Shown: positions 5,824 to 24,074 of the stretch, piece after piece
How positions within the stretch are numbered: position 1 is the first letter of the stretch
Layout: each line of letters begins with the position of its first letter
Source of the DNA: Sedimentisphaera cyanobacteriorum
Lineage (GTDB): Bacteria > Planctomycetota > Phycisphaerae > Sedimentisphaerales > Sedimentisphaeraceae
Length of the DNA stretch: 32,000 nt
Assembly (NCBI RefSeq): GCF_001997385.1
Contig: NZ_CP019633.1
Span: 810,001-842,000 of the forward strand
Reading direction: 5' to 3'
Notes under the pieces: model-generated
Seen by the model: only the letters and a program-made list of their open reading frames with translations
Told to the model about the DNA's origin: nothing
The model's database searches: none
Position numbers and translations under genes: made by a program

Positions 5824-6168
5824 GCAATTCAAACCGCTTTCACCTGTATTTAGTAGCTCTCAAAACACTTCGACAGATTTTACCTATACTTTATAAAAGG
5901 TCAACACAACAATAGCTGATATGTGCTGATTAACATAATTTAAATCATTATAACAATAATTTCAATTTTAAAAGAATAAATAATACGTTAAAAGTAAAAA
6001 TAAATAAAATAAAAACTTTTCTCGTTTTAATATCAGCGATTTATATATTGGTCAGGAATATTTTTGTTCAAATAAAACAGAATTCACTTACAAAATCCAA
6101 CTTTTTTTTCAACTATTAAAGAAGTTAAGAAAAAAGCGCAATTAAACAATATTCGAGGATAATCTTTT
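5824..6168. promoter_or_regulatory. Strongly AT-rich 345-bp divergent intergenic region with A-tracts; it must hold the promoters for both flanking transcription units
   Basis: The region contains runs such as aaaagaataaataatacgttaaaagtaaaaataaataaaataaaaac. It holds no ORF and lies between divergent genes (4279..5823 minus, 6169..8208 plus). Confidence 0.4.
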
Positions 6169-8208
6169 ATGCTGCACTTATCATATTTTTCAGGTTTGAA
6201 GTCAATTCGCAAATCTTTACTTATTTTGGTGCTTATTTCAGCAGCGGCTATTGCTGAGCCTTCCTCCAGATCTGGGGCTGGGGCAATATTATACCCGGGA
6301 GGAGCAACATTTCGGGTTTGGGCGCCGAATGCTGAAGAGGTAAATGTGGCTGGCGAATTTAATTATTGGAACTCCTCTGCCAACCCGCTCTACAGTGAGG
6401 CAGGCGGATGGTGGTCTGCAGATGTCAATGGAGCCGAAGAAGGCAATGAATACAGGTATGTAATAAACGGAGAGCTCTGGAAAAGCGACCCGCGGGCGTT
6501 TGATGTGGTGAGCTCTGTCGGCAACTCGATAATCACTGATAACCAGTACGACTGGGATGAATTCTCTCCGCCTGCATGGAATGATATGGTTATATATGAA
6601 ATGCATCTTGGAACATACTATGATGCCCCGGGCGGGGATCCGGGAACATACTACTCGGCTGCTATGAAACTTGACCACCTCGTTACGCTTGGCATAAATG
6701 CAGTGCAGCTTATGCCGGTATGTGAATTCCCCGGCAGCTACTCCCTCGGCTATAATCCGGTAAATCTATTTGCACCTGAAAGTGCATACGGGAGCCCTGA
6801 GCAGCTGAAATTTTTCATAGACCAGTGCCATAAGAGGGGCATTGCCGTTTTGATTGATTTGGTTTACAATCATCTAGGCCCTACAGACCTTGGCGAATCA
6901 TTATGGCAGTTCGATGGATACAGCGCCTCCGAAGATACAGGCGGGATATACTTTTATGAAAATGACAATCGTTTTACTCCTTGGGGCGATACCCGTCCGA
7001 ACTACAGCACCGGCGAGGTGCGTTCATTCATCCGAGACAACGTGATGTACTGGCTCAATGAATACAATATGGACGGCATTAGAATGGATGGAACAGCGTA
7101 TATTCGCGAACGCGGGATTATGCAGCCAGAGATACCGGAGGGCTGGACTCTGATGCAGTGGATAAACAATGAGATAGATGCGGCCCATTCCGAAAAGATC
7201 TCTATTGCAGAAGATATGCGCGATAATGAATGGATTACCAAAACCACCGGTGAAGGAGGGGCAGGCTTCGATTCTCAGTGGGATGCGGGGTTCCATCATA
7301 AGATTAAAGGCGTAGTTACACAGTCTGACGATCCGAACAGAAATATGTATGATGTTCGAGATGCGATAACAAATCTCTACAACGGAACTGACACCCAGAG
7401 AGTAATTTATTCCGAGAGCCACGATGAGGCGGGCGCTTCAAGCGGAAAAAGCAGGCTACCTTCAGCTATACACTGGGATAACCCTGAGAGCTACTGGGCC
7501 AAGAAACGCTCTACACTTGCAGCAGGGATTGTTATGACAAGCCCGGGAATACCGATGCTTTTTATGGGGCAGGAACTTCTTGAGACAGGAGCTTGGCACG
7601 ACGATACACCTTTAGACTGGTCAAGAAAAAGCACGTTTTCCGGGATAAATATGCTTTATAAACATCTAATAGCTCTTCGAAGAAATTTGGGCGGAAATAC
7701 CCTCGGTTTGAAAGCAGGCAACGTAAATGTTTTCCATGTAAACAATTCTGCGAAAGTAATAGCATACCATAGATGGTGGAACGGAGGCCCGGGAGATGAT
7801 GTAATAATTCTCGCAAATTTCAGCGGCGCAGGCTTCACTAACTACAGTATCGGCATGCCCAGAGAGGGGCGATGGAGAGTGCGTTTCAACAGCGACTGGG
7901 AGGGCTACGACCCAGAATTCGGCAGCTGGAACTCTTACGACACCTATGCCTACTCAGGCTCCAAACACGGTCTTGATTATCATGCTGATGTGGGGATTGG
8001 GCCGTACAGCATGGTAGTGCTCTCTCAGGGGACTGGGCCAAATATGAATGGAGATACAATCGTTGACAATCTCGATTTCGGAATGTTTTCTGAGCAATGG
8101 ACAGGCAGCTGCGATTTGTGGCACTCCTGCGAAGGAGCAGATTTCAATATGTCCGGCTCGGTGGATATAGAGGACCTGCAGATTTTCGTCAGCAGCTGGC
8201 TTGAATAG
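6169..8208 (+). CDS. Secreted CBM48-GH13 enzyme with branching-enzyme-type conserved regions and a C-terminal dockerin-like tag
   Basis: Signal peptide: KSLLILVLISAAAIA/EP. CBM48-like region: GATFRVWAPNAEEVNVAGEFNYWN...EYRYVING. GH13 conserved regions: YEMHLGTY, DLVYNHLG, DGIRMDGTAYI, ISIAEDM and YSESHDE. C-terminus: DFNMSGSVDIEDLQIFVSSWLE. Confidence 0.85.
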   Translation: MLHLSYFSGLKSIRKSLLILVLISAAAIAEPSSRSGAGAILYPGGATFRVWAPNAEEVNVAGEFNYWNSSANPLYSEAGGWWSADVNGAEEGNEYRYVINGELWKSDPRAFDVVSSVGNSIITDNQYDWDEFSPPAWNDMVIYEMHLGTYYDAPGGDPGTYYSAAMKLDHLVTLGINAVQLMPVCEFPGSYSLGYNPVNLFAPESAYGSPEQLKFFIDQCHKRGIAVLIDLVYNHLGPTDLGESLWQFDGYSASEDTGGIYFYENDNRFTPWGDTRPNYSTGEVRSFIRDNVMYWLNEYNMDGIRMDGTAYIRERGIMQPEIPEGWTLMQWINNEIDAAHSEKISIAEDMRDNEWITKTTGEGGAGFDSQWDAGFHHKIKGVVTQSDDPNRNMYDVRDAITNLYNGTDTQRVIYSESHDEAGASSGKSRLPSAIHWDNPESYWAKKRSTLAAGIVMTSPGIPMLFMGQELLETGAWHDDTPLDWSRKSTFSGINMLYKHLIALRRNLGGNTLGLKAGNVNVFHVNNSAKVIAYHRWWNGGPGDDVIILANFSGAGFTNYSIGMPREGRWRVRFNSDWEGYDPEFGSWNSYDTYAYSGSKHGLDYHADVGIGPYSMVVLSQGTGPNMNGDTIVDNLDFGMFSEQWTGSCDLWHSCEGADFNMSGSVDIEDLQIFVSSWLE

Positions 8209-8221
8209 TAATTTGCCAGCT
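8194..8221. terminator. 7-bp inverted repeat (AGCTGGC-N14-GCCAGCT) spanning both stop codons of the convergent GH13 genes; possible bidirectional terminator lacking a U-tract
   Basis: Arms at 8194..8200 and 8215..8221, read directly from the sequence. Only 11 nt separate the two convergent stop codons, so there is no room for a separate terminator. Confidence 0.3.
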
Positions 8222-9767
8222 AATAGGCAGTTATCCTGAAGATTTCCGTTGAATGCGGCTTGGCTATGCCTGAAATTACTAATGAATCGGTCTTGATTTT
8301 GAGGCTTCTGCCCAAAAGCTTTTCGAAGCAAACTTTGCTTTTTCTGTTACGGCCAATAATCTTGATGCCGTTGACAGAGGATTTGTTTTCTGAAAAATTA
8401 TGCACCACTGCAATTATTTCATCTTCCCAGCGTCTTTGAAAAGCGAGGATGGGATCAGCATCTGAGTTCAGCAGCTTAAAATCGCCGCACCTGAGAGATT
8501 GACTTTGGTTTCTAAGCCTGATCAGCTTTTTATACCAGTTCAGCAGAGAATGCTCATCAGTCTCCATCTTCTCAACGTTGAATTGATTGAAGTTTTCATT
8601 AGGTTTTTTCCAAGGAAGCCCTTTTGTGAAGCCTGCATTTTGGCCTGCAGACCACTGCATCGGCTTGCGGATTTCCGGGTCCGGCTTTGTTCCGGTCATG
8701 CCAATCTCCTCGCCATAATAGATAAAGGGCGTGCCCGGGGAAGTGAGCAGAACAGCAGCGGCAAGCTTCATTTCGGCCATGTTCTTTGAAAGCTGAGAGA
8801 ATATCCTGTTTTGGTCGTGGTTTGAAAGAAACGGGGCAAAACTGAAATCAGAATAATCACTGCACGCCTTATCAATAATCTGAGAAATCTTATTAGGGGT
8901 TCGGTCTTTGATGTCTTCGACTAATGCCCATGAAAAAGGAAACTGAAAACCCATATCAACGCAGCCTTTAATCGTGTATTCACGGATAACATCAGCCTGA
9001 TCCCATATCTCACCTATTATGAATACATCCTCAGAGCAGCTCTTCCAATTCTTTCTCAATTGTTTCAGCACTCTAAATGTTCCGGCTGTATTTTGTATTT
9101 CGCCTTCATTTTCTACGAGATATTTAACAGCATCAAGCCGAAATCCATCAACGCCAACCTCTTCAATCCAAAACCGCCCTGCATTTTTAACCCTTCTTCG
9201 AACTTCGCTGCATCTGTAGTTTAAGTCCGGCATAACCCTGCTGAAAAAGCCGTAGTAGCTGCCTGATTGAGCTTTATGCCAATTTTCTCTGCCTTCAGGA
9301 TCATCTCGCCATACATAAAAGTTTCTGTAACTGTCCTGATGGGCTTTCAATGAATTTTTAAACCACGGATGTTTATTTGAGGTGTGGTTGGGCACAAAAT
9401 CAATTATCACCTTTATGCCGCGACTGTGAGCCTCCTCGAGAAATCTGCCAAAATCCAGCAGGTTCCCGTAATCTGGGTTTATGTCTCGGTAATCGGTAAC
9501 ATCATATCCATGATAACTCGGAGAGGGCATAATCGGCATAAGCCAGAGAGCATTAATTCCTAAGTCTGAAGTTGTTTCAGGGCTGCCGTCATTGAGGTAG
9601 TCGAGCTTTTGAATTAGCCCTTTTATATCCCCGATACCGTCGGCATCGGAATCATAAAAACTCCTTACAAAGACCTCATAGAAAACTGCACCTTCCCACC
9701 ATCTTTCTTCTGCCGATTCAACTGAGGCACAGCAGGTAAAAATAAGCAGCAAAACACAGATTCGCAT
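8220..9767 (-). CDS. Exported GH13 alpha-amylase-family enzyme (MPDLN-type, neopullulanase/GH13_36-like)
   Basis: The track start at 9782 is a TTG. The ATG at 9767 gives the signal peptide MRICVLLLIFTCCASVESA. Motifs: FYEVFVRSFYDSDADGIGD, DFVPNHTS, GVDGFRLDAVKY, IGEIWD, FLSNHDQNR and VMPDLN. It starts 2 nt after the upstream stop. Confidence 0.9.
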   Translation of the reverse strand: MRICVLLLIFTCCASVESAEERWWEGAVFYEVFVRSFYDSDADGIGDIKGLIQKLDYLNDGSPETTSDLGINALWLMPIMPSPSYHGYDVTDYRDINPDYGNLLDFGRFLEEAHSRGIKVIIDFVPNHTSNKHPWFKNSLKAHQDSYRNFYVWRDDPEGRENWHKAQSGSYYGFFSRVMPDLNYRCSEVRRRVKNAGRFWIEEVGVDGFRLDAVKYLVENEGEIQNTAGTFRVLKQLRKNWKSCSEDVFIIGEIWDQADVIREYTIKGCVDMGFQFPFSWALVEDIKDRTPNKISQIIDKACSDYSDFSFAPFLSNHDQNRIFSQLSKNMAEMKLAAAVLLTSPGTPFIYYGEEIGMTGTKPDPEIRKPMQWSAGQNAGFTKGLPWKKPNENFNQFNVEKMETDEHSLLNWYKKLIRLRNQSQSLRCGDFKLLNSDADPILAFQRRWEDEIIAVVHNFSENKSSVNGIKIIGRNRKSKVCFEKLLGRSLKIKTDSLVISGIAKPHSTEIFRITAY

Positions 9768-9769
9768 AA

Positions 9770-12250
9770 TTATTCCCCGCAAGGCAGAACTTTTAATTGC
9801 GAAATGTTGGTGTAATTGTAAGGCTCATTTCCTCCGCCTGTATTTTTGTACGGCGAGTAATGCTGAAAATAGCTCATATTGCGAGAATATTCATCCTCGC
9901 TTATCAGAACTTTATATGTCTTTTCTTTTTCGAGTTCGGCATATATGAAAGCGGAATCTCTGTAAATATCCCAGCCGGGCTTGCCGCTTCCGTGCTTTGC
10001 AGTATGGGGCATAATCAAGTATCCTTCGGTTTTACTGCTGTTTGAATCTTTCTCAGCAAGCTGAATATTTTTCACAGCACATGTGATTCCGGAATTAATT
10101 CCAAAAGCTCCGTTGGAATATTTTACGTATATTCGGTGAAGGCCGGAAAATTTGGGAGTAAACTCGCATTCAATCTCGTGCCCTGATTTGCCCCAGTTCT
10201 CAAAATGATGGTCGTTTACAAGGTATCCGCCTTTGTTTTGCATCTGCGAGGCTTCCACTTCAACCGAATAATCCGCAGCCGGAACATATTCACTTATGTG
10301 CGATGTATTTCCGCTATCATTAAAAACGCTGCACACTGCATAATAGTAAGGCGTGTATTTAAAGCCGGCAGAATTATTGTCCCTCCAGCTGTTTGCCCAG
10401 ATTCTATCTGCGACAAGCTCCCCGTTTCTGTAAACCCTGTAGTATATATTGGAACTTTCCTGTCCCTGCCACTTTAGATGAACAAGCCCGAATTCGCTTT
10501 CAGCAGATACATCCTTCGGCGTTTCCGGAGCAAATATAGTGCTTCCGGAAAGCTTTTCAACAGTATTTATTTTATCTCGGGAAGGTGAACCAGCGGAAAG
10601 ACGTATTTCAAAGCTGTTCACTTTTGAAAGCCTGTTTTCATTTATATGGAAAGAGTTAAGCTGATTCGAATTTAATTTGATGCTTTCCAGATTATAACGG
10701 CTGCTATGTGAGGGCTTTTCAGGAAGATTGAGGGTGATATTTATTATTTTTCCGTGGTATTCAAGCCCTTTGAGCTGAACCTTATTTGCGCCATTGAAGA
10801 GATTGCTGTGCATCCATCCTGTTACGTAGGGAGCGAGTTTTATGCTGTTCCAGCTCGGTTCGAAGCCGAAGATAACTTCCTGAACCATCCCAATATAACC
10901 TGCCACAGACCATAGCTGGCGTCTGGAATTGATAACTGGACCGCTGATTCCATTAGATTCTGCGTAAGCAAGGCCTGATGCAAAGTCGTAATTTTCCATA
11001 TTCGACAAATTTAGAGCCGCCTTTGAAACAAGGGAGTGAACTGCGCTGTTTACAGCTTTTGAGTTCTCAGCAGTCTTTGCTGCCTTAAGTCTGTAAGCTG
11101 AAACAAAAGGCCATATCCCGTGATTGTGATATATCGGCACGTTCTTCACCTGAGGCCAAACCACAGGTGTCCCGAATTTGCCTGTAGGGTAATTCGCTGC
11201 AAGTTTTTCGGCGGTTTTCTCATCTGCCACACCGCAAATAACTGCTAAAGACTCACCGAGAAGATCTCTGCGATTGGTTTTGACAGTCATTTTGTCTTCA
11301 ATAATAAGTGAGCTGTAATATCCATCATCTTCAAGGTAAAAATTTTCATTTATGCTTTTTTTGAGCGATTCAGACCACTCAGAATACTTATCCTGCAAGG
11401 GGGAGTTGTTTCTTTCCGCAAGTTTTGCGGCGAATTTAAGCATATTGTAATGCAGCACGTTTGTTGAGAGCGATTTGGATTGAGCTATGAGAGTAACATT
11501 GTCTCGCGTTCGGTATGGATAGCTCTGTTCCCGCCAGTCGAGAAAAGACTGCTCGCCGGAATACAGCCCGCAGGTGGTGTCGAATATAATTTTCCTGTCC
11601 TGCTCCACGGTGTTTTTTATTACCGGCCAGCACTCATCCAAGAAATCAGCCCTGAGAACACCGTGAAGATTTTTTGCAAGCTCTTTTGCCGCCAAGGCCC
11701 AAACCACCCTGTCTGTAGAAACAGGCCAGCTTCCGCCGGAGCCGGTATCTTGAATAATCTGGGGCTCAAAGCCCCCTTCTATCCCCTCTTTCAGCCGGCT
11801 TGTCTTGAACAAAAGTGAATTGATGCACCTTTCCTGATCAAAGCCGGCCAGCGAGAGCTCTATTGAATATGAAAGGTCTCTTGTCCAAACGTATTTCCAT
11901 TTCTCGCCAGTTTGAAAGTAAGGCCTTTGCAAACTGCTGCTGTAATTAAAACTATAGTCTGAAATGCTTGATACAGAATTTAATTCGGCCTCATAGTAAG
12001 CCATAGCAAAAAGCCCGTCAAAAAGCTTCGAGCCGGAATGCAGTGTTGGCCATGCTTTTTCTGTAATATTCAGCTTGCTGCTGTTGCTGTCTCTGAGCTC
12101 GAGTGTTGTTGACAAGATGAACTGCCTTTTTCCATCATTTTGCTGAACTTCTGCTGAGGCTTCTCCCCTGGTATCTTTATAGGAGTTTGCAGTATAATTC
12201 CCAGCATGGCAAAAAGACACAGCTAAAAGCAAAATAATAAATTTCTTCAT
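9770..12250 (-). CDS. Exported six-hairpin (alpha/alpha)6 glycoside hydrolase (GH15- or GDE-like) with a C-terminal Fn3-like domain and a CBM6/35-like domain
   Basis: Signal peptide: MKKFIILLLAVSFCHA. KYVWTRDLSYS resembles the Y.W.RD region of GH15. Other motifs: PQIIQDTG, FLDWREQSYP and QLWSVAGYIGMV. The C-terminus has an Fn3-like stretch (HLKWQG...YYRVYRNG) and a jelly-roll-like stretch (YSVEVEASQMQNKGGY...IYVKYSNG). The exact family is not resolved by eye. Confidence 0.6.
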   Translation of the reverse strand: MKKFIILLLAVSFCHAGNYTANSYKDTRGEASAEVQQNDGKRQFILSTTLELRDSNSSKLNITEKAWPTLHSGSKLFDGLFAMAYYEAELNSVSSISDYSFNYSSSLQRPYFQTGEKWKYVWTRDLSYSIELSLAGFDQERCINSLLFKTSRLKEGIEGGFEPQIIQDTGSGGSWPVSTDRVVWALAAKELAKNLHGVLRADFLDECWPVIKNTVEQDRKIIFDTTCGLYSGEQSFLDWREQSYPYRTRDNVTLIAQSKSLSTNVLHYNMLKFAAKLAERNNSPLQDKYSEWSESLKKSINENFYLEDDGYYSSLIIEDKMTVKTNRRDLLGESLAVICGVADEKTAEKLAANYPTGKFGTPVVWPQVKNVPIYHNHGIWPFVSAYRLKAAKTAENSKAVNSAVHSLVSKAALNLSNMENYDFASGLAYAESNGISGPVINSRRQLWSVAGYIGMVQEVIFGFEPSWNSIKLAPYVTGWMHSNLFNGANKVQLKGLEYHGKIINITLNLPEKPSHSSRYNLESIKLNSNQLNSFHINENRLSKVNSFEIRLSAGSPSRDKINTVEKLSGSTIFAPETPKDVSAESEFGLVHLKWQGQESSNIYYRVYRNGELVADRIWANSWRDNNSAGFKYTPYYYAVCSVFNDSGNTSHISEYVPAADYSVEVEASQMQNKGGYLVNDHHFENWGKSGHEIECEFTPKFSGLHRIYVKYSNGAFGINSGITCAVKNIQLAEKDSNSSKTEGYLIMPHTAKHGSGKPGWDIYRDSAFIYAELEKEKTYKVLISEDEYSRNMSYFQHYSPYKNTGGGNEPYNYTNISQLKVLPCGE

Positions 12251-12267
12251 AATTCCATGGATCCTTT

Positions 12268-13257
12268 TTAAACTAAGCAGAACGTATCTCTGGCAAGGGC
12301 AGCGCTTCCTATAATCCCGGAATCCTCTCTGAGATTTGCAAAACAGAACTCTATTTTCACATCAATATCTTTGCGGATAAATTTATTGAAATAAAAACTG
12401 ATTCTGTCAAGCAGTGCCTGTCCAGCGGCAATCATTCCGCCTGAGAAAACAATCTTATCGGGGTTTGAGTATGAAAAGATATTCACGCAGAGAAGCCCTA
12501 TAACTTTAGCCGTGAGTTCAGTGATTTCATAAGCAAATCTGTCGCCTTGAGACGCATGCTCGTAAACCTCCTTACAGCTAACATCGCCCCTTTCGATAAA
12601 TATATCCTGAAGTGAAGAGGCCGCTCCCTCAGCAAGCATTTCGTTTGCCCTTTTGGCAGTTGCCGAGGCTGAGGCATAAGTCTCAGCGCAGCCCCTCTGC
12701 GTGCAGCCGCACTCTCTGCCTTCGGGATAGATTATGATATGACCGAGCTCAGATGCGCTGTTACCGGCGCCGTGAATAAGCTTGCCGTCTGTTATTACTG
12801 CCCCGCCGATACCTGTACCGAGAGTTAAAAGCACCATATCATCCACGTCCTCAGCTGCGCCGAGGACATACTCCCCCCAGCCCGCCACATTCGCATCATT
12901 TTCAAGAATGCAGGGAGCGTTTATCTTCTCTGAAACATATCTGCTTATCGAAAAACCCTTATAGACCGGCAGATTGGGCGAGGTAATTATCATGCCTTTT
13001 TTTGTATCCAAAACCCCCGGACATCCTATTCCAGCGGCTTTTATGTCTTCCATCCTTAACCCTGCCTGACTTAATAAGCTGCCAAGTGCATTGACCACTG
13101 AATTCATTGTGGCCTTAGGCCGGTCGTTATCGGTGGGGATGGAGATCTTTGAGAGCATCTCCATCTTCTCGCTGAAGCAGCCGATCTTTACGAACGTCCC
13201 GCCCAAGTCTATTCCAACAAAGAGGTCTTTAGTGTCGGTATTTATGTTTTTCTGCAT
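12268..13257 (-). CDS. glk: ROK-family glucokinase
   Basis: The track start at 13272 is a TTG; the ATG at 13257 gives MQKNINTD.... Motifs: GIDLGGTFVKIG, ENDANVAGWGE, LTLGTGIGGAVI and the zinc motif ELGHIIIYPEGRECGCTQRGCAETY. No signal peptide. Confidence 0.85.
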   Translation of the reverse strand: MQKNINTDTKDLFVGIDLGGTFVKIGCFSEKMEMLSKISIPTDNDRPKATMNSVVNALGSLLSQAGLRMEDIKAAGIGCPGVLDTKKGMIITSPNLPVYKGFSISRYVSEKINAPCILENDANVAGWGEYVLGAAEDVDDMVLLTLGTGIGGAVITDGKLIHGAGNSASELGHIIIYPEGRECGCTQRGCAETYASASATAKRANEMLAEGAASSLQDIFIERGDVSCKEVYEHASQGDRFAYEITELTAKVIGLLCVNIFSYSNPDKIVFSGGMIAAGQALLDRISFYFNKFIRKDIDVKIEFCFANLREDSGIIGSAALARDTFCLV

Positions 13258-13289
13258 AACTTCTTTGCGCAATTAATCGTTTAGATGTA

Positions 13290-14123
13290 TTATCTTTTCA
13301 CTAATGATAATCTGTATGTATCCTGCCAGCGAACTTCACTAACATGGCCATCTACGAAGACAGCATTCGCCGTGCCGTCTCCTCTATCTTGTACGCTTAA
13401 TTCGGTTTTGTGGAAGCTTCCGAAAAGATCATCGAACTGCCCGTCGTAATCCTTGGGGAGGTTGGTCTCAACAAAATTGTCCCTAAATCTGGCACATAGT
13501 GCATTGTCGTTCAGAGCTGCGGTATTTTTCCGTGCCCCGTTTTCCTCCCTAAGCCACATATTCTCTTCTGAGAAAAAGAAAGTATTGCCCGCCCTTTTTA
13601 CTGCATCATATTTCAGCGGCTGACCGTCTGTATAGTTATTGGAATTAGGCGAGAGAAAAGCATTCATACTGTAGCTGTACTGAGGTTCAATTTCAATTTC
13701 AGAATTATGATATGGGTGTTCTGTCCCGTATCTTTTGGCGAAAGATTCAAACATCGGACAGAGATTAATCTCTGTGTTGTCGCCTAAATACGGAAAAAGA
13801 GAACCCTGAAGATGCTGATAATCATCGTTTACAGGATTTCTCTGGGCATCGTGCCACTGGCAGTTGATATCTCCGCCTGCAAGATCGGGCTTGAATATAC
13901 AGTTCCAAGCATTGGGAAATTCGTAATCATTCTCATTCACGTACATATTGCCTGAAATGCCGTACTGCTTTAAGTTATTCTTGCATAAGATATTTTTCGC
14001 TGCTTTTCTGGCTTTGTTGAGCGACGGGATCAAAACAGCCATTAGAATAGCAATAATTGATATAACCACCAGCAGCTCTATAAGGGTGAAGGCTTTTTGG
14101 GTTTTATTATTGTGATTATCCAT
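13290..14123 (-). CDS. Prepilin-type N-terminal cleavage/methylation domain protein of the DUF1559 (H-X9-DG) pseudopilin-like family
   Basis: The track start at 14141 is a TTG. The ATG at 14123 has AAAGGA 6 nt upstream. N-terminus: [35 protein letters not shown]-terminus: [13 protein letters not shown]. Confidence 0.85.
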
Positions 14124-14152
14124 GAGAAATCCTTTCTGCAATAATACAGTGT

Positions 14153-16975
14153 TTATTCAATATATTCGAATTTATCAGTTTTCATAACTTCGATTTCTTT
14201 GCATATATCACCATAGCCGAAGCTTATTCCATTCTCTGTGATCCAAGCAATCTTTACAAAACGCTTATCGTAAGCGAATTCACCAACCTGTTTATCGCAG
14301 GTTACACTGATCCCGCCGTCTGTTCTTTCAGCTTTGAAGTTTGAAACTACGAATTCGCCCTCTTTGAATTCATAGCCTTTGCCGCTGTCTTCATAAAGCC
14401 TGCCGGATGCCTTGCCGTTTTCGTCCAGGACAATCGACAGCGTAATCGGATTGACCGCGCCCAGCTCTTCAGTTGACTGAACTTTTTCTCCTACCGGGAT
14501 AATGCTTCCGCCCTTCTGAAGCAGTTTGCACTGATACTTATCCCACTTTTCGTTATCGCCGATTTCGAGATCTCTGAAAACACCTTCAGGCAAATTAACA
14601 TCTTCTGCCCACTTTGGAATAACAATAAGATTATCGCCAAGCATAAAGACCTGATCCTCAGCTCTGAGGGATTTATCATCGGGGTCTGCAAAGAAAACCG
14701 GTTTCATAACAGCACTGCCGTTTTTATGTGAGTGCCAAAATAGCGTATATAGATATGGCATAAGCCTGTAACGCTTGTTAAGGGCACGCCTTGAGGCTTT
14801 TTCTGTTTCTTCCCCGAAAGACCAAGGCTCATGATTTTTCGTCCCATTAGCTGTATGCGATCTGCTGAAGGGGAAATATGCCCCTGCGCTGATCCAGTGT
14901 GCATAAAGCTGAGGCGTGGCATCACCTACAAAACCTCCGATATCCGGCCCGTTGAATGGCTGGCCGGAAAGAGAAAGATTAAGAGACATTGGAATAGACT
15001 GTTCCAAATGAGCCCAAGTTGAACCGTTATCGCCTGTCCAAGTTGCGCCAAACCTCTGTCCGCCGAGGAAATTAGCCCTTGAAAGAACAAACGGTCTTTT
15101 GTTTGGAGCGTATTGCAGCATACCCTCTCTTGTAGCCTTGATCATCAAATAGCCGTAAACATTATGGTACTGAATATGCTTGCCCGGCTTTAATTTGCCG
15201 CCGCCTCTGTGAATGTTATCCGGCGGCATAGTATGTCCCTTTGCTTCAAAAACGGCCGGCTCATTCATGTCATTCCATACCCCGTCAACACCCTGATCGA
15301 GGAAATCCTGATAATGATCAGCCCACCATTTTCTAACCCTCGGAATAGTATAATCAGGAAAGACGGTTTTCCCCGGCCAGACCTTGCCGATATAATCCTC
15401 GCCGTCTTTAGTTTTAACCCATGCATCAATTTCGCTGCCGCTGTCGTAAACCGAGTACCCCTCTTCATATTTTGGCGCAGGGTCTATCATCCAAACGTTC
15501 TTAAATCCTTTGGTATGAAGATAATCATTCAATCCCTTGGGGTTGGGGAAACGTTCAGGGTCGAATGTAAAAATACGATATCCGTCCATATAATGTATGT
15601 CGAGCCAGATAACATCGCATGGAATCTGCCTCTGCCTGAATTCTCGAGCTATTTCACGTACTCGGCTGTCTGGATAGTAAGAATATCTGCACTGCTGATA
15701 ACCAATTGCCCATCTTGGCGGCATATCGATTTTGCCTGTAATCTCTCCAAGCATTTCAAGCAGCCTTGAAGGGTTCTTAGCTTCGAGGGTGTAAACTGGA
15801 AAATCAAGAGCATCTCCGGGAACTGAAAACAATATGCCCGCTCTTAAATCAATTTCCGACTTCCAAGTCGTATCAAAAATTATTCCGTATGCGGTTCCAT
15901 CCGGACGAACACCCATAACCCAAGGATGACTCTGATACATCTTATCAGGGATCCGGTAGTTGTAGTTGTCTCGATTGTAGAAAACTATCCTATATCCGTT
16001 CCTCTTCAGACCTCCCTGAGCCTCACCTATACCATAGAAATCGTCTTCAGCAGGCGTGTCAAAATAAACATATTTGCGTCCGTTGGTCTTAGAAAAAACA
16101 GGCCTAAGGCCTGGGGTTTCTTGCAGCCTGCTGACATTTTCAAACTCTTTGGCAATTGCAAAAGAGAACGGGACTTGCTCTAAATCAGCATACTTTGCAT
16201 AAAAGCGGTTTACGTCTTTATCGAGCTTTTCACTTCTGCCGGGAAGTTCGGCATTTTTTATTGCTTTTGAGACCTTCCCGCCCGGAGAGTTGTCGTATTC
16301 GAAAAGCGAATCCCAATCTGTGGCGATTTTCAGCTCATCAAACTCCCACTTGTTATTCTCATCTCCCGCTCTGAATCTGAGCTCATTAAAATCAAATTCA
16401 AACTCTCCCCTTGCGATTTTCCATTCGTTTTGGTCGTTTAGGTCTCTCCGTACAAGAGGGTCGAGCCAGATTGTGAATTTATCCTTTTTTCCCTTCCTGA
16501 AATCTATTCGAGCAGCTATAAGATGAACTTCTCCATCTACCAGAGTTGGTGCCTTGCCTATAATTCTGCTGCCGCCGGAATAGTAATATTTGAAATAATT
16601 AGATTCGAAATCGTTACCAATACCAAACAGTTCATTGCCGTTGTTATAAATTCCCAAACCCGCAAAGCTGTGCTTTACATCCGGATTTAAGTTTCTCAGC
16701 AAAAAGCTTATATAAATTGTTTTGCTGTTCTTTCTGTAGGGCTCAATATCAACATCCCACACAGCATCAACATCATTGCCTTTATGAAGGAGTTTATTCC
16801 CGGTTTCCTCTAACCAGCTGAAATCAAGGCTGCCTTTTGAAACTGAAACAGCATTTTCACCGCTTTTGACTGCTGTTTGCGAGATTTGCCTGCAATCGAA
16901 ATTTTCTTCGAAAATAACATCTGAAAAACCTGCACCTACTAAAACAGTTAAAACAAAAAATAAACTTAATCTCAT
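14153..16975 (-). CDS. Exported GH31 alpha-glucosidase with an extra N-terminal jelly-roll-like module of about 210 aa
   Basis: Signal peptide: [20 protein letters not shown]31 motifs: [46 protein letters not shown] (nucleophile region), [29 protein letters not shown] and FSRSHT. Confidence 0.9.
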
Positions 16976-17061
16976 TCGAATCCTCTTAAATTTAATGTTT
17001 AGTTAAAATTTCCCCATTCTTTCGCCCTGCTCATAATTCAGGGCGTAAGGATAAGAAATAT

Positions 17062-17091
17062 GCATTCCCGGCCCAAGTGAGCCGGGAATGC
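17062..17091 (-). terminator. Perfect 11-bp hairpin after the Ig/LamG gene (intra-array terminator or attenuator)
   Basis: On the minus strand: GCATTCCCGGC-tcacttgg-GCCGGGAATGC followed by ATATTTCTTAT. It begins 10 nt after the stop at 17101. A second hairpin, CGCCCTG-N9-CAGGGCG, lies at 17023..17045. Confidence 0.45.
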
Positions 17092-17100
17092 TATTATATT

Positions 17101-19239
17101 TTATTCTGTTGGATAAACGTTGTTATCAATGAGCCACTGGGCTGCAAATTCATCAAAATCAGAAAGGCTTACTTTGCAGTCGCCGTCGAAATCCATCTGC
17201 GGATCGGACTGGCAGACCGGCTCACCAGTCATATCAGCCATCATCTGCGCTATATCGCTTTCTGAGATTGGATAGTTGTATATAGACACCTCATCGAGTG
17301 TGCTGGCCATAAAGCTGAATTCCTGCGGAACTATTACGCCGCCTTCAAGCTCAAATCTTGCCCCCATGCTCACTGGTGAAGATGTTTCTGCGATAGAATC
17401 GCCCGGGAGACTGTCTTCAGATGCGAGTGTGCCGTCGATATACAGCTTCTTCTCGCCGTCATCAAATGATGCTGCAATCCAGTGCCACTGACCGTCAAAG
17501 ATGTTTCTCTCTGAAGGCGTGCCGTCTTCCTCGCCGCCTGTGCCTCGGGTTGTGAAGCAGATCTTACTGCCCTGATCGGCAGTGTTATACTTCCTTACCT
17601 GCCAGCCTTCGCTGCTTTCGCCGTTTCTTGCTACAAACGGGTTCCAGTCTGATGGTGTTGTAGATTTTGCCCAGAAGGTAACTGTCATATTGTAGTTGCA
17701 CTGATCGAAGTAATCCACTTCCTCTATATCGGTATAAAGGGCATTGTCCTCTCCGTTGAAAGTGATCGCTTCGCCGCTCCAGCCTGAAACAAAGTTCGGA
17801 TCTCCGAAAAGATAACTGCTTGGGCTTTCTGCTACTGCGCTTTGATAATCTCCGCCGTCGAAAGACCAGTGAGCGATTTTCTTCTGGATATAAAGCATAA
17901 TAGGATCGCTTGAGACCTCTGTACCGGAATCGTTGGCTACTTTGCAAACGTATTCAGTTTCATCGCCTGCCTGAACATTTGTAACTTCGAGCACAGAAGA
18001 TGTCTCGCCGGAGATTTCCTGAAGCTCGCCTGCTGCATCAGCTTTGTACCACTGATAAGTTTCCGGAGAAATAGAGCCGACTTCAACTTCCATTGATACT
18101 GTCTCGCCTATATCAGAAAGCACGTATTCAGTTTGCGATAGAATCTCAGGAATAGATTTCTTCGTTTGGAACTGCCATGTGAACCCTGTAGTTGTTTCTG
18201 CGCCTCGAACAGCATCAACGCGCCAGTTGTATGTTCTGTCCATATCGAGCGGCTCTGCCGGCGTGTAAGAATAAGACCCGGAAACCTCATCCCAGCCGCC
18301 TGCGGGCTTTGCGGTGGTATCAATAAGGAAAAGATTAGGATCGCCCTCTACAGTATTCATATAGAGCTGGTATTCATCAACAGTTTGATCAACATCAGTT
18401 ACATCGGGTTCTGCAAGAGCAAAATCCCAAGTTAGATCGGTATCAGCAAGTACGCCTGTCTCCCCGTTAGACGGCAGGGGATTGTGCGCTCTTGAAAGCT
18501 TTTGTTCAAAGGTGAATGTTTCCTCGAATGTTGTTGCAACAACAACATCATCCCAGTCTGCTGTTTCCATGCACGCTATCCTAATACCGGTAATCCAGTC
18601 TCCTTCTCTTGCTGAGGCATCCATAAACGCATCTGCTGTGTTGTCTGACGGGCTGTTGTAATAGTCCTCAGCATCGGGATTTACCCATACGCCTACATTC
18701 TCAGTTTCCATATCCCATACGCCAATAATGCGCACTGTTTCGTTGAGCTCAGCTTCAACGTCTGTCAAAGCCTGACCGCCGCCGTCTCCTTCTACGCTCA
18801 ATCCCCAGTATTTTACTCCTGCCTGCTGATAAGGCAGCCCGTATTTAACTTTTTCGCCTCCAGTGTCGGCCATGAAGCTGATTCCGCCCCAGTCGCTGTA
18901 GCCGGTGAGGGTAATAGTTGCTCCGGCGTATATAATTCCGCCGGCCTGCTGAGCGCCTGCCCAGATATCACCGCTGGACCAGTCTCTGTAGGCTCCGCCG
19001 CCGCTTCCGCCGAAAGCTGGGCTGCTGTACACGCCGCCGTTAATTACATCGCCTGTCAAAGTACCCCAGTCGGTTTTCCAAGTTGATTTTGTACCAGTTT
19101 GGGTTCTGTCCCAGCCGATACCTCCGTTCTGCCCTACCAGATTAGACCCGTCCGGATAATCGAAGCTTTCATACCCAACCAGCTCAGCGAAAGAAACGCT
19201 CGCCAAAATGATTAAAATAAATGCTGCTAACTGTCTCAT
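17101..19239 (-). CDS. Secreted non-catalytic multidomain protein: N-terminal jelly-roll module, Fn3-like domain, Ig (I-set-like) domain, LamG/concanavalin-like domain and C-terminal dockerin-like tag
   Basis: The track start at 19269 is a TTG. The ATG at 19239 (MRQLAAFILIILASVSFA) has GGAG 9 nt upstream. Ig-like: YQWYKADAAG...LEVTNVQAGDETEYVCKVANDSG. LamG-like: IAHWSFDGG...MTVTFWAK...GQWHWIAASFDDGEKKLYIDG. C-terminus: DFDGDCKVSLSDFDEFAAQWL. Confidence 0.75.
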   Translation of the reverse strand: MRQLAAFILIILASVSFAELVGYESFDYPDGSNLVGQNGGIGWDRTQTGTKSTWKTDWGTLTGDVINGGVYSSPAFGGSGGGAYRDWSSGDIWAGAQQAGGIIYAGATITLTGYSDWGGISFMADTGGEKVKYGLPYQQAGVKYWGLSVEGDGGGQALTDVEAELNETVRIIGVWDMETENVGVWVNPDAEDYYNSPSDNTADAFMDASAREGDWITGIRIACMETADWDDVVVATTFEETFTFEQKLSRAHNPLPSNGETGVLADTDLTWDFALAEPDVTDVDQTVDEYQLYMNTVEGDPNLFLIDTTAKPAGGWDEVSGSYSYTPAEPLDMDRTYNWRVDAVRGAETTTGFTWQFQTKKSIPEILSQTEYVLSDIGETVSMEVEVGSISPETYQWYKADAAGELQEISGETSSVLEVTNVQAGDETEYVCKVANDSGTEVSSDPIMLYIQKKIAHWSFDGGDYQSAVAESPSSYLFGDPNFVSGWSGEAITFNGEDNALYTDIEEVDYFDQCNYNMTVTFWAKSTTPSDWNPFVARNGESSEGWQVRKYNTADQGSKICFTTRGTGGEEDGTPSERNIFDGQWHWIAASFDDGEKKLYIDGTLASEDSLPGDSIAETSSPVSMGARFELEGGVIVPQEFSFMASTLDEVSIYNYPISESDIAQMMADMTGEPVCQSDPQMDFDGDCKVSLSDFDEFAAQWLIDNNVYPTE

Positions 19240-19318
19240 TTTTAAATTCTCCATTTGCCATGACAACAACCTTGCTTTACCACCCGCATGGCATCAGGGG
19301 CAAAGCTTAAATAATATG

Positions 19319-21661
19319 TTAATTACTTTCCGTTTCTATGTAATCAATGTTTATATCTCCGAAATCATCAGGGGCGTAGTAAATGCAAACCTGATTAATT
19401 CCTTTTTCAAGCTCTGCAGAAACCGAGCTAACTGCCCAGCTGTCCCAGTTTGGAAGAATTGGCAAATCAATCTTGCCGGCTGAATCGCCATTGATAATTA
19501 CAGTCCGCCTTGAGCTTTCATTAGCGGATGCATAATTAAGTTTGATATTGTAACTGCCGCTATGGACTGCTTTTACGTAAAAAGATACGCTATCGTAAAC
19601 TCCGGTAAACTGATCTACAAAACCTTCGCCTGAGAAGCCCGGGTGGTCGTTATCAACAGCTGTGTTAAATTTAATCGCGTCTTCCGCCTCATACCTGTAT
19701 CCCTGCGGGGTATTAAAATCCCTTTCAACCAAGATCATATCCCAGTATTTCAGCTCTTTCACAGTGAATGAGATAAAATCTCCAGTGCTGTCCCTGCCTT
19801 CGGTGAAACTCAGAGGATAAAAGCTGCCTCCGTTTCTATCCGGCGAGCCGCAGAAAACCTTTTTTGCCTCGGCGTTAGGCCCGAGCCTTAGCTTAACCGT
19901 GAAATCATTGACTGTATTTGGCGAAGCCGCCTGATTCCTCCATAAACTGTCATTCCCGAGAAGATTGACAAGATGAAAGATTTCGAAATCCTCATTCGCC
20001 CTGTTGAGAAACCATACCGTATTAGAAGAGGCATCGCCGGAAAGGCTTATCTCAGGTATATCTATCCACTGAAGCCCGCTGTCGCCTAATCTAAGCTCCG
20101 GGGAGAAAAGCAGCTTTTCGTTTGCGGTGATAAAGCTGTAATAGTCTTTGAGCTTATCTTTCAGCGAATCGGTCATAAGTTTTTCTCTGGAAGGAAAAAA
20201 TTCGTTTGCGAGCATAAAATCTCCGTCGCCAAGCTCAAGATGGAAAGCCCCGCATGCAAAAAATGCAGCATCGGCAAGAAGAACTGAATCTTCATCAAAA
20301 TAGCCGCCGGTATCTTCACCTTTATTCATATATGCAGGAAGCACTACTGCCTTCCCTCCGGATTCTTGTTTTGCGTAGCGAATAAAATCCCTTACCCCTC
20401 TGTAGGTATCATTAGCCCAAAGCTCGCTGTAAATCACATCCGTACTGCTTTGTTCTACAATCTCAGAGGATGCCCAGCTGCCTGCGCCTCCGTCAACAAT
20501 GTTAAAAATCACAGCGTCCCTGCCCTGCATATACGGGTACTCAGTTTCGAGCCAGTCCAGATGCATCTTGCTTCTGTTTACTATAGACCGCAAGCCGTCT
20601 GCAAGATTTACTTCTTCCCCCCAATAATCAAAGTAGCTGCCGCTGCCTATATTCCCGAGCTGGTCGATATGCAGTCCGTCCCACTGCAAAGCCTGCATTG
20701 CATCGGTAAACTCGCCGCAGAGATGGTTCTGCCAATCAAGATTGAACGGATTAAATACCCAGATTTTTGTTCCGGCATCATGGTAATACTGGTTTTGATG
20801 AGATTGATCAGAATAGAGTCCCCATTCAGGGCTCACCCCGCTTATCTGCTGATAGTCATCGAGTCCGCAGTAGGCCTGAAAATACGGCATAGCTGCCATA
20901 TTTCTATCGTGCGCCTCACTAATAGAATGAGCAAGAACAGAATAGGATATTTCTGCTCCTCGCCAGTCCTGCCACGGGTCTTTTATGCTTCCATCCTGAT
21001 TTCGCTGTATTACATTCTCATGCCTCCACATCCAGTCGTAATACTGAAGGGAGTTTATGTGATAATCTCTCGAGAGTGAATTCATAATTTCGATATTTCT
21101 TGAAGCCTTCTGTCCTTCGTAAAACTCTGTAACATACCCGTATCGCGGATACATCTTCCAGTCGCTGGAAACATCGATTGCAGATGTTTCGCTATCTGCA
21201 TTGTTCAAAAGAGCTTCAATCTGATAGCCCTGAAAATCATCAGGCGGGAGCTGAAATGAGAACGTTTTATTTGTATTGCCGAAAGAGGAAATCGAGATCG
21301 AATCAGAAGCTGAATAAACGGCGCCGGTGTTTTTAAGGACACGCAGTCTGAGAGTACCGCTGAAAGCATTTTCTGAAGGGTTTGCGCATTTGACTGTTAT
21401 ACAGCAGTTTGCATTCGGGCTGTACCTAGAACCGTCCGTATAAACCTTTTCTATAAAAGCATCAGACTGGTTCAAACCGGAAAGCCACTGAAAAGCCAAA
21501 TCTGAGATATCGAGGCTTTTATATCTGTCCTGCTGCTTGTTTGCAACAGCTGCGAAATCAGAAAGATCAACTTTGCCGTCGAGGTTGAAATCTGTTCTCA
21601 AACCCGCAAAGGACATAGTGCATATCAAACCGGCAAGGAATATTTTTATAAGATGTTTCAT
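19319..21661 (-). CDS. Exported GH66-like enzyme (dextranase / cycloisomaltooligosaccharide glucanotransferase family) with an N-terminal dockerin-like tag and a C-terminal CBM35/CBM6-like domain
   Basis: A signal peptide is followed by DFNLDGKVDLSDFAAVA. YPRYGYVTEF, INSLQYYDWMW, WDGLHIDQLG and DVIYSELW resemble, from my memory of streptococcal and Paenibacillus GH66 sequences, the FPRY, nucleophile (..D..G) and acid/base (..YNELW) regions. C-terminus: YEAEDAIKFNTAVDNDHPGFSGEGFVDQF...YNIKLNYA, which is CBM35/6-like. Confidence 0.65.
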   Translation of the reverse strand: MKHLIKIFLAGLICTMSFAGLRTDFNLDGKVDLSDFAAVANKQQDRYKSLDISDLAFQWLSGLNQSDAFIEKVYTDGSRYSPNANCCITVKCANPSENAFSGTLRLRVLKNTGAVYSASDSISISSFGNTNKTFSFQLPPDDFQGYQIEALLNNADSETSAIDVSSDWKMYPRYGYVTEFYEGQKASRNIEIMNSLSRDYHINSLQYYDWMWRHENVIQRNQDGSIKDPWQDWRGAEISYSVLAHSISEAHDRNMAAMPYFQAYCGLDDYQQISGVSPEWGLYSDQSHQNQYYHDAGTKIWVFNPFNLDWQNHLCGEFTDAMQALQWDGLHIDQLGNIGSGSYFDYWGEEVNLADGLRSIVNRSKMHLDWLETEYPYMQGRDAVIFNIVDGGAGSWASSEIVEQSSTDVIYSELWANDTYRGVRDFIRYAKQESGGKAVVLPAYMNKGEDTGGYFDEDSVLLADAAFFACGAFHLELGDGDFMLANEFFPSREKLMTDSLKDKLKDYYSFITANEKLLFSPELRLGDSGLQWIDIPEISLSGDASSNTVWFLNRANEDFEIFHLVNLLGNDSLWRNQAASPNTVNDFTVKLRLGPNAEAKKVFCGSPDRNGGSFYPLSFTEGRDSTGDFISFTVKELKYWDMILVERDFNTPQGYRYEAEDAIKFNTAVDNDHPGFSGEGFVDQFTGVYDSVSFYVKAVHSGSYNIKLNYASANESSRRTVIINGDSAGKIDLPILPNWDSWAVSSVSAELEKGINQVCIYYAPDDFGDINIDYIETESN

Positions 21662-21680
21662 TCGATTATTTTAGCCTAAA

Positions 21681-23363: not shown

Positions 23364-23373
23364 TTCCCTATCT

Positions 23374-23892
23374 TTATTCCTGTCTTAAAAGTTCTCTTTT
23401 AATACAGCTTCTCAGCAGTGCTACAATCCTTGCTAATGATTTGTAAATCCCGTTGCCGGATCTGCCGGTAATTTCTGAAATTTTCTTTACGCTGAATTCC
23501 TTCTTAAATCTCATAAGAAGAAGCTTCCTGTCGGAGGTATTAAGCTTTTTTATACACTTTTGAAGCAGTTCAATCCTTTCTGCCTGATTATCGTCGCTGT
23601 ATTGGGCGAGCTGAACCAAGGATTCGTAAAAGTTTTCGCCGAATACGGGGGCCCTTTTTCTGCTTCGCATATGCTCTTTCACTTTATTCTTGGCAATCCC
23701 AAGAGCCCAGCCAGCGAAATCATAAGAAGGGTCGTATTTATCAAAACTCTCCCAGAGTATCAGGCTTACTTCCTGCATAAGCTCGTCTGCGTCATTGCGG
23801 TTGTGCACAGATGCGAGCAGATAAGTATATAGCCTTAGCTGAACTCTGGAATAATGCTTAATAAAATCCGAATTTTCTTTTTTAATTTTCAT
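23374..23892 (-). CDS. ECF-type RNA polymerase sigma-70 family factor (Planctomycete/Verrucomicrobial subgroup-like)
   Basis: Region 2: DADELMQEVSLILWESFDKYDPSYDFAGWALGIAKNKV. Region 4: LNTSDRKLLLMRFKKEFSVKKISEITGRSGNGIYKSLARI. The track start at 23916 is a GTG; the first ATG is at 23892. The start is uncertain. Confidence 0.85.
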   Translation of the reverse strand: MKIKKENSDFIKHYSRVQLRLYTYLLASVHNRNDADELMQEVSLILWESFDKYDPSYDFAGWALGIAKNKVKEHMRSRKRAPVFGENFYESLVQLAQYSDDNQAERIELLQKCIKKLNTSDRKLLLMRFKKEFSVKKISEITGRSGNGIYKSLARIVALLRSCIKRELLRQE

Positions 23893-23940
23893 ATAAAATC
23901 CGCTCGAATTCTTCACCTATACTTGTATTTGCAGTTAAAA

Positions 23941-23949
23941 ATTGTAACA
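23941..23949 (-). promoter_or_regulatory. Candidate extended -10 element (TGTTACAAT) upstream of the ECF sigma gene
   Basis: The minus strand reads cTGTTACAATttttaact. The element lies 49 nt upstream of the ATG at 23892 and downstream of the terminator at 24020..24047. No convincing -35 element. Confidence 0.3.
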
Positions 23950-24019
23950 GAAAAATAAAAATTAAAGAAGATAATCATAAAATGGGTGACAAATCGGCTC
24001 TGCTGCCTTGTTTGAACTA

Positions 24020-24047: not shown

Positions 24048-24074
24048 TGTGATCTCTGATACAATATCCTGCTG

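Follow-up and report, generated by a model that had tools for sequence, protein, structure and literature searches.

A prepilin gene retained in planctomycete dextran loci, a candidate link between a pilus or secretion machine and polysaccharide use

We analysed a 32,000-nucleotide stretch of the Sedimentisphaera cyanobacteriorum genome (hereafter the window; NZ_CP019633.1, positions 810,001 to 842,000), which carries a dextran locus of glycosidases, regulators and other exported proteins and, among them, a gene for a prepilin-type protein that we refer to as the pilin (Table 1). Its immediate neighbours are the genes for a glycoside hydrolase (GH) of family 31 and for a ROK-family sugar kinase. 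The minus-strand open reading frame (ORF) spans 14141..13290, and the ATG at 14123 gives a protein of 277 residues. A look-up of this exact protein sequence found no entry, probably because a different start codon was used for the deposited gene. Along the run GH31–pilin–ROK–GDE_C–GH13 the intergenic distances were 29, 17, 17 and −13 nt; the original prediction, made from the sequence of the window, had counted 29 nt to the GH31 stop and 32 nt to the ROK ATG, and both were confirmed, the figure of 17 nt being measured from an upstream TTG of the kinase gene. As set out below, the pilin has been retained in the dextran loci of three species from two families, under strong purifying selection.

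The N terminus of the pilin fits the class III signal pattern, namely, a short polar leader, a small residue at −1, Phe at +1, Glu at +5 and about 20 hydrophobic residues, and both prepilin models scored above their cut-offs (34.5 vs. 21.2 bits for PF07963, N_methyl; 28.7 vs. 16.3 bits for TIGR02532). The leader had been described as a textbook one, which it is not quite: residue −1 is Ala rather than the classical Gly. Among 117 homologs in its subfamily this residue was Ala in 53 and Gly in 64, and Glu5 together with the full class III signal was kept in 119 of 121 subfamily members. The motif is the only one of its kind in the window. The S. salicampi ortholog, 91% identical (90.6%), is annotated by NCBI as 'type II secretion system protein'. 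By its sequence the pilin is a predicted type IV filament subunit.

Placement in the DUF1559 family, also part of the original prediction, fared less simply when the profile models were run. PF07596 (DUF1559, also named SBP_bac_10) scored 14.7 bits against a gathering cut-off of 23.3, matching profile positions 2–42 of 268 only, and TIGR04294 (H-X9-DG) scored 13.8 bits against a cut-off of 19, over positions 7–19 of 22 only (the distal half); PF07596 was matched at E ≤ 0.01 by 35 of the 121 aligned subfamily homologs. We used hhalign to compare the subfamily profile with 38 canonical H-X9-DG pilins drawn from genomes of the Planctomycetes–Verrucomicrobia–Chlamydiae (PVC) group. (These came from a scan of genome contigs with full-length alignment patterns, which was swamped by generic FTLIELLV, returned broad PVC pseudopilins and was kept solely as this source.) The match had a probability of 100% at full length (E 9.5e–41) and of 97% for the head domain alone (E 1.1e–10), with the CP, Y-x-M-N, F-x-E and N-x-x-F-x-DG-H-V motifs in register. 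By this profile–profile homology the pilin is a divergent member of the DUF1559/H-X9-DG superfamily despite its sub-threshold scores. With the DUF1559/TIGR04294 prepilins of Planctomycetota, Verrucomicrobiota and Lentisphaerota it shares the N-terminal class III signal, the C-x-N-N-L-K-Q-x-G that ends the first helix (alpha1), the CP, Y-x-M-N and F-x-E motifs, a C terminus of the form N-x-x-F-x-D-G-[SH]-V, and membership of large paralog families without assigned function. The subfamily itself is modest and distinct: the head-only profile, run against 1.84 billion representative proteins, matched 867 clusters at E ≤ 0.001, mostly from Sedimentisphaerales-type genomes, and its named members belong to Sedimentisphaera, Anaerohalosphaera and planctomycete metagenome-assembled genomes.

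Apart from falling below both cut-offs, the pilin and its subfamily differ from canonical DUF1559/TIGR04294 prepilins in the distance from the C-terminal His to DG, 17–19 residues instead of 9. The original reading of the C terminus, ...NAVFVDGHV, and its count of 19 residues were both correct, but the spacing is not the peculiarity of this gene that it was taken for: X17 is the subfamily norm (73 of 120 homologs), X19 occurs in the two Sedimentisphaera orthologs only, and another subgroup has X29–32. A 10-residue insertion had also been proposed. Head-only hhalign pairs the S-F-H of the subfamily with the canonical S-x-H, and because it thereby places the 8–10 extra residues after the conserved His, reading them as an insertion is reasonable. 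Eight of the ten residues would then be an old, subfamily-wide trait and two lineage-specific.

The AlphaFold2 model of the pilin, built on the 121-sequence alignment, had a predicted local distance difference test (pLDDT) score of 90.5 and a predicted template modelling (pTM) score of 0.86. It has a 51-residue N-terminal helix (residues 14–64), strands at 151–154, 182–187, 251–256 and 261–264, and a large helical insertion between helix and sheet, a predicted pilin-like lollipop with an elaborate head. A Foldseek search of the PDB found no solved fold resembling that head (best E 2.9), the subfamily profile matched solved type IV pilins and GspG over positions ~1–65 only in a PDB sequence profile search, and Pfam gave no domain beyond N_methyl and no known carbohydrate-binding domain in the head. 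Many head residues are invariant (C47, C88, C122, W90, H91, D92, E186, E187, N205, D206, H238, D258 and H260), a pattern that suggests a defined ligand or metal site.

The equivalog models for individual pilin families matched the N-terminal helix only, and below their cut-offs, the Gsp models far below: GspG (TIGR01710), 29.9 vs. 88.85 bits; GspH, 21.9 vs. 80; GspI, 17.8 vs. 44.35; ComGC, 36 vs. 75; and ComGE, 33.4 vs. 49. With the pseudopilins of the type II secretion system (T2SS; GspG major, GspH/I/J/K minor) the pilin has in common the prepilin leader, Glu5 and a long hydrophobic alpha1; it differs from them in that its head (~215 residues) is unrelated to the solved heads and in that it is a single gene without ATPase, platform or secretin genes alongside.

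The association with the dextran locus was examined in related genomes. The S. salicampi locus has the same gene order, with the pilin in the same position. Between these two species dS (synonymous substitutions per site) is about 1.3, with synonymous sites near saturation, and the ratio of nonsynonymous to synonymous substitution (dN/dS) of the pilin, 0.039, was the lowest of ten locus genes, the glycosidases having values of 0.09–0.19. In Anaerohalosphaera lusitana, of a different family, the order of the dextran locus is sigma, anti-sigma, pilin, LamG/Ig, PEP-CTERM, GH13/CBM48, GH66, GDE_C-like, and the pilin, likewise of the subfamily, starts 15 nt after the anti-sigma gene. It is 43% identical to the S. 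cyanobacteriorum pilin; the other locus proteins are 34–53% identical.

Table 1. Features of the pilin gene and of the surrounding dextran locus (window coordinates)
Feature	Position	Strand	Basis
Prepilin-type (class III signal peptide) gene, 277 aa	13290..14123	-	ORF call; N_methyl and TIGR02532 above cut-off
Shine-Dalgarno-like AAGGA, 6 nt 5' of the pilin ATG at 14123	14130..14134	-	Read from sequence
Leader peptide of the pilin, 11 residues; predicted prepilin-peptidase cleavage Ala11/Phe12	14091..14123	-	Sequence; cleavage site predicted
Hydrophobic N-terminal part of alpha1 (alpha1-N), 22 residues, Glu at mature position 5	14025..14090	-	PF07963 matches residues 7-31
C-terminal signature H238-X19-D258-G259-H260-V261	13341..13412	-	Spacing counted
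PEP-CTERM protein, 242 aa, signal peptide; terminator-like hairpin after it	24075..24803	-	Pfam, sequence comparison
Extracytoplasmic function (ECF) sigma factor, presumed locus regulator	23374..23916	-	Pfam
FecR-type anti-sigma factor with C-terminal NPCBM carbohydrate-binding-type domain	21681..23363	-	Pfam
GH66 dextranase with CBM35; defines the locus substrate	19319..21661	-	Pfam E 1e-131; 100% identical to the deposited S. cyanobacteriorum protein
Secreted LamG_3/Ig protein, C-terminal dockerin-like repeat; non-catalytic, putatively glycan-binding	17101..19269	-	Pfam
GC-rich hairpin, 13-bp stem, in the LamG-GH31 spacer	17062..17091	-	Spacer 84% identical to that of S. salicampi
GH31 alpha-glucosidase-type enzyme, signal peptide; upstream neighbour of the pilin, 29 nt off	14153..16975	-	Glyco_hydro_31_2nd E 9e-122
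ROK-family sugar kinase, cytoplasmic; downstream neighbour of the pilin	12268..13272	-	Pfam ROK E 2e-64
Six-hairpin (GDE_C-like) glycosidase, 826 aa, signal peptide	9770..12250	-	Pfam
GH13 alpha-amylase-family enzyme, signal peptide; closes the tightly packed run; 13-nt overlap with the GDE_C-like gene	8220..9782	-	Pfam
GH13/CBM48 gene, opposite strand	6169..8208	+	Pfam

Signal peptides were found on every glycosidase of the locus and on the LamG/Ig and PEP-CTERM proteins, and not on the ROK kinase. The N-terminal ~215 residues of the PEP-CTERM protein resemble the N-terminal part of the LamG/Ig protein and are 42% identical to the LamG protein of A. lusitana over 215 residues; the locus thus encodes a pair of paralogous surface-type proteins, neither of them catalytic, that differ in the C-terminal end by which they would be sorted or anchored. 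The dextran loci of S. salicampi and A. lusitana encode anti-sigma factors of the same FecR/NPCBM architecture, which suggests direct sensing of glycan in the periplasm without a TonB-dependent transducer. As the original prediction had it, the locus lacks a transporter: Pfam found no transporter family among the ORFs of 6169–24803, nor did the Pfam matches of the locus ORFs include a SusC-like TonB-dependent transporter or a SusD-like protein. In common with the polysaccharide utilization loci of Bacteroidota, the dextran locus has substrate-specific exported glycosidases, an ECF sigma/anti-sigma pair and non-catalytic putative binding proteins. In contrast to them, it has neither SusC/SusD nor a TonB-dependent transducer, its anti-sigma factor has an NPCBM domain of its own, and pilin, LamG/Ig and PEP-CTERM genes stand where those for the Sus surface proteins would be.

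A repeat that resembles those of dockerins or EF-hands, D-F-[ND]-x-[DS]-G-x-V-[DS]-x-x-D-[FL], is present once in each of three exported proteins of the locus, at the N terminus of GH66 (residues ~24–40) and the C termini of LamG/Ig (~693–710) and GH13/CBM48 (~658–675). In S. salicampi the repeat is again present in LamG/Ig and GH13/CBM48, and in A. lusitana it is present in LamG/Ig; GH66 was unmatched there. Such shared repeats suggest docking onto a common partner. Beyond the GH13/CBM48 gene, a minus-strand ORF of 517 residues (4279–5832) had no Pfam match at E ≤ 0.001 and is not a membrane protein by hydropathy; one stretch of it, ..YRGFHVRPSTLIA.., resembles the active-site region of the HPr phosphocarrier.

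The 125-nt minus-strand spacer between the LamG and GH31 genes (16976–17100) is 84% identical to that of S. salicampi; synonymous sites of the flanking genes differ by ~60%. It contains two GC-rich hairpins, at 17062–17091 and about 17023–17045 (GCATTCCCGGC...GCCGGGAATGC and CGCCCTG...CAGGGCG), and Rfam had no match in the window. The spacer hairpin may be a terminator, an attenuator or an element of mRNA processing or stability; if it acts so, the one at 17062–17091 may mark the 5' boundary of a GH31–pilin–ROK–GDE_C–GH13 unit. Similar hairpins lie 5' of the LamG gene and in A. lusitana spacers.

To place the pilin among its relatives we compared gene neighbourhoods in two samples. The first comprised ten of the closest homologs on long contigs, which represent seven distinct contexts, and five of these were loci of carbohydrate-active enzymes (CAZymes): the dextran loci of Sedimentisphaera and of A. 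lusitana; a recurrent GH16 (laminarin-type) cassette, in which a PEP-CTERM gene, a pilin–hypothetical–pilin trio and an MFS–hypothetical–LacI trio follow one another; a GH95/GH13/pilin/GH3/ECF/FecR/PEP-CTERM/GH30 cluster; and a tandem set of three pilins with GH106 and a LamG_3 gene next to it. The other two contexts were of the housekeeping kind (SpoIIE, pilin and cmk-plsC-ispH-rpsA in one, miaA/queA in the other). Genes for GHs or polysaccharide lyases made up 20 of the 97 neighbours; taking as baseline a CAZyme share of up to about 8.7% of genes, that of the richest Sedimentisphaerales genome (PMC11131199), the binomial P is 2e–4, a value inflated because CAZymes cluster.

Two of these contexts recur in recognizable form. 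The GH16 cassette was found in four loci of related metagenome-assembled genomes (L006, L087, L088 and L091; pilin at about 8001–8840 or 10001–10879) beside GH16/GH17/GH30 genes: a divergent PEP-CTERM gene, a pilin, a protein of 448–488 residues without Pfam match and a second pilin are followed by a convergent MFS transporter, an uncharacterised protein of ~610 residues, LacI and an uncharacterised protein of ~1066 residues. Its make-up resembles that of a beta-glucan locus to which two pilins are dedicated. The closest sequences outside the genus (46–48% identity; L003, L004, L090 and L097) are lone pilins between a GAF/SpoIIE phosphatase gene and cmk-plsC-ispH-rpsA, an arrangement kept across several Anaerohalosphaeraceae-type genomes, with a second pilin a few kb off beside a pectin/hexuronate cluster; the lone pilin may belong to the core of the subfamily and be constitutive.

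For the second, broader sample we scanned metagenomes with patterns of the head domain and obtained 25 non-redundant loci, in which we counted as near the genes within three positions of the pilin (131 genes) and as far those six or more positions away (107 genes), Pfam counts covering the 25 commonest families. The commonest families among near neighbours were prepilin (22), LamG_3 (6) and fumarase (6); among far neighbours prepilin and LamG_3 each occurred at most once. Prepilin genes, that is, cluster near subfamily pilins, and LamG_3 is weakly enriched there. Six loci with distant subfamily members (L151, L144, L134, L169, L139 and L158) have tandem arrays of three to five prepilin genes beside housekeeping genes such as fumarase. 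Lectin-module pilins, including those with LamG_3-type modules, are a recognised design (PMC8179133). In such modular type IV pilins (Streptococcus sanguinis PilC; N_methyl+LamG_3; PMC8179133) the pilin module could carry or present a glycan-binding function, as our pilin might; unlike them, it has no fused lectin module, and LamG_3 proteins are recurrent separate neighbours. We also sought pilin–LamG fusions. All 258 prepilin ORFs from 174 related loci were too short for one, with no more than 372 mature residues; a pilin–LamG_3 link would therefore join separate proteins.

We regard the pilin as a good candidate for what would connect polysaccharide use with a pilus or secretion machine. The reading that we tentatively prefer, at a probability somewhat below even, is that it is a minor (accessory) pseudopilin, specific to the dextran regulon, of a type IV filament machine whose genes lie elsewhere in the genome. 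The ECF sigma factor and NPCBM anti-sigma factor would induce it along with the enzymes, prepilin peptidase would cleave it after Ala11, and it would enter the inner membrane by alpha1-N and join a T2SS-type pseudopilus at low abundance, probably at the tip. Its fast-diverging head of ~215 residues would recognise a locus-specific partner, the likeliest being the co-encoded exoproteins, namely GH66 dextranase, LamG/Ig and PEP-CTERM. As a cargo adaptor it might thus help these exoproteins to cross, or to be displayed at, the outer membrane, where they would meet high-molecular-weight dextran.

The archetypal T2SS, Pul of Klebsiella, is encoded beside pullulanase and co-induced with it, and our pilin gene is likewise linked to a secreted alpha-glucan hydrolase. 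This association of T2SS with a secreted glycosidase would favour the accessory-pseudopilin reading by analogy, as would the carbohydrate-binding module on the endo-dextranase (expected of an enzyme acting on extracellular polymer), the signal peptides of the putative partners and the neighbourhoods in Tuwongella, where genes for proteins with N_methyl and SBP_bac_10 domains are often flanked by signal-peptide genes and 25 of the 91 proteins were detected in membrane fractions (PMC8567305). The pilin-like N terminus and model, the tight packing of the run behind a conserved hairpin, the synteny, the low dN/dS and the CAZyme loci of the closest homologs count in its favour as well. A comparable case has been described in Verruconatronum alginivorum, in which a pulG-like pseudopilin (pgaptmp_000050), one of 67 paralogs, lies in an alginate cluster and was tied by its authors to T2SS export of lyases (PMC13274419). 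Compared by description, this too is a single pseudopilin of a large paralog family inside a polysaccharide-degradation cluster of a PVC bacterium; phylum and substrate differ from ours. The pattern of PVC pseudopilin paralogs beside secreted-protein or polysaccharide-degradation genes is thus already in print; the conserved link to a dextran locus is not.

Several results weigh against this preferred reading. Genes for prepilin peptidase, ATPase, platform and secretin were absent from the 32-kb window, and no secretin, T2SS or type IV pilus ATPase, or platform family was recurrent within three genes of the pilins in the 25 metagenomic loci, among the matches listed; the machine is therefore assumed. 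To our knowledge, no T2SS has been shown to have a cargo-specific pseudopilin. Co-transcription and control by the ECF sigma factor are deduced from gene spacing only. A neighbour-joining tree was star-like, so that the orthology of the Sedimentisphaera and A. lusitana pilins is not resolvable from sequence. Nor does the pilin accompany every GH66 gene. In another genome, of 3.4 Mb, a GH66 gene whose product is 53% identical to the S. cyanobacteriorum enzyme adjoins only a DUF5722 gene (L174:7823-12355), with no pilin, sigma/anti-sigma pair or LamG gene within 10 kb. Absence of the gene from orthologous dextran loci had been named as grounds for giving up the idea of a dextran role; S. salicampi keeps the pilin and A. 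lusitana has a family member, whereas this second, simpler kind of GH66 locus goes without. The pilin belongs, that is, to one type of dextran locus (ECF/NPCBM/LamG/PEP-CTERM) and is not needed wherever GH66 occurs.

Also on this side is the broad sample. The original prediction had proposed that DUF1559 genes might be enriched inside CAZyme clusters, and the 25 metagenomic loci gave no general enrichment: no GH family occurred twice among the 131 near neighbours, among the matches listed, and an (incomplete) panel of 14 GH families showed no difference with distance (3 of 132 near, 2 of 79 at middle distance and 2 of 107 far). Many subfamily members lie in tandem pilin arrays or beside housekeeping genes, and CAZyme adjacency is not general for the subfamily.

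The first alternative, that of the original prediction, makes the pilin a component of capture and uptake, and we hold it to be possible, on the doubtful side. The pilin would be the dextran-binding subunit of a retractile pilus-like fibre that drags intact dextran through an outer-membrane pore, after which periplasmic GH66, GH31 and GH13 would digest it, by analogy with the competence pili of DNA uptake. The Planctopirus work to which the original prediction referred bears it out on this point: Boedeker et al. 2017 (PMC5394234) found gold-labelled dextran on pili-like fibres emerging from large crateriform structures, in Planctopirus limnophila and Gemmata obscuriglobus, and according to a 2025 review (PMC12673574) the molecules behind planctomycetal polysaccharide uptake are still unknown. 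The lack of a transporter or SusC/D-like importer fits such a scheme, and so does the NPCBM domain of the anti-sigma factor, since a carbohydrate-binding-type domain in the periplasm implies that glycan gets there; further points are the lectin-module precedent and the invariant aromatic and polar residues of the head (W90, H91, D92, E186, E187, N205, D206, H238 and D258); synteny and purifying selection serve it equally. Yet Pfam and PDB searches detected no carbohydrate-binding domain or fold in the head; LamG/Ig and PEP-CTERM are better candidates as binders; the CBM35 and dockerin-like tags of GH66 suggest that it acts at the surface or outside the cell, in which case the polymer would not need to be imported whole; and the L174 locus manages without a pilin. 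Sedimentisphaera is, moreover, distant from the fibre-bearing Planctomycetia, and a GH66 of Planctopirus or Gemmata, sought as a tie to the dextran-fibre experiments, was not among the best 120 GH66 homologs. The T2SS reading accounts for these facts no less well.

Rather unlikely, in our view, is a static anchor, that is, an unpolymerised pilin with its N-terminal helix in the inner membrane and its head in the periplasm, where it could bind or scaffold oligosaccharides or periplasmic glycosidases, or signal with the FecR/NPCBM anti-sigma factor. The Pfam name SBP_bac_10 is a solute-binding-protein label (PMC2754498), and the A. lusitana pilin, 15 nt after the anti-sigma gene, lies in the operon of the regulator; 68–100 paralogs per genome are hard to fit into one filament. 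In Tuwongella, 25 of the 91 N_methyl+SBP_bac_10 proteins were detected, in membrane fractions, including detergent-soluble ones; such two-domain proteins were, however, found in the fraction soluble only in sodium dodecyl sulfate too (PMC8567305). Against an anchor of this kind stand Glu5 and the class III signal, hallmarks of filament assembly that are kept almost throughout the subfamily, and the Foldseek and PDB profile searches, which gave no likeness to true solute-binding-protein folds.

The weakest alternative, very unlikely by our estimate, is that the pilin is a general paralog without a dextran role, its position reflecting the scattering of a large mobile family in a CAZyme-dense genome: the family genes 'evenly spread around the genome' in Tuwongella (PMC8567305), the metagenomic sample without CAZyme enrichment, the CAZyme richness of Sedimentisphaerales (PMC11131199) and the pilin-free L174 locus would all accord with it, but the position has been kept between two species at a dS of about 1.3 with the lowest dN/dS of the locus, the dextran locus of A. 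lusitana, from another family, has a subfamily pilin in spite of its rearrangement, and the tight intergenic spacing argues for co-transcription.

A broader idea, which we consider quite improbable, would treat DUF1559-type pilins as exchangeable tip subunits, each specific to one substrate locus, of a single retractile fibre/secretin machine. Every glycan regulon would switch on a pilin of its own, here the dextran one, which by itself or together with the neighbouring LamG/Ig protein would harpoon the polymer and pull it intact into the periplasm. If this were true, the exchangeable tip pilins would correspond in function, in planctomycetes, to SusC/SusD, and both the size of the paralog family and the crateriform fibres that bind dextran would be explained.

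In many planctomycetes no paralog family is larger than that of the DUF1559-type prepilins, which have no known function; they form the largest paralog group of P. limnophila, where two of the 68 copies are essential, and Tuwongella has 91. The S. cyanobacteriorum pilin is an unusually tractable member, with a defined substrate (dextran), conservation in the dextran locus across two families and stronger constraint than the surrounding enzymes. As a test case it offers one pilin, one polymer and few candidate partners (GH66, LamG/Ig and PEP-CTERM), and either outcome would give the family its first function. To a specialist a pseudopilin in such a locus would come as no surprise; its value would lie in a clean, substrate-defined entry to two open questions, namely, the function of DUF1559 proteins and the molecules of planctomycetal polysaccharide uptake.

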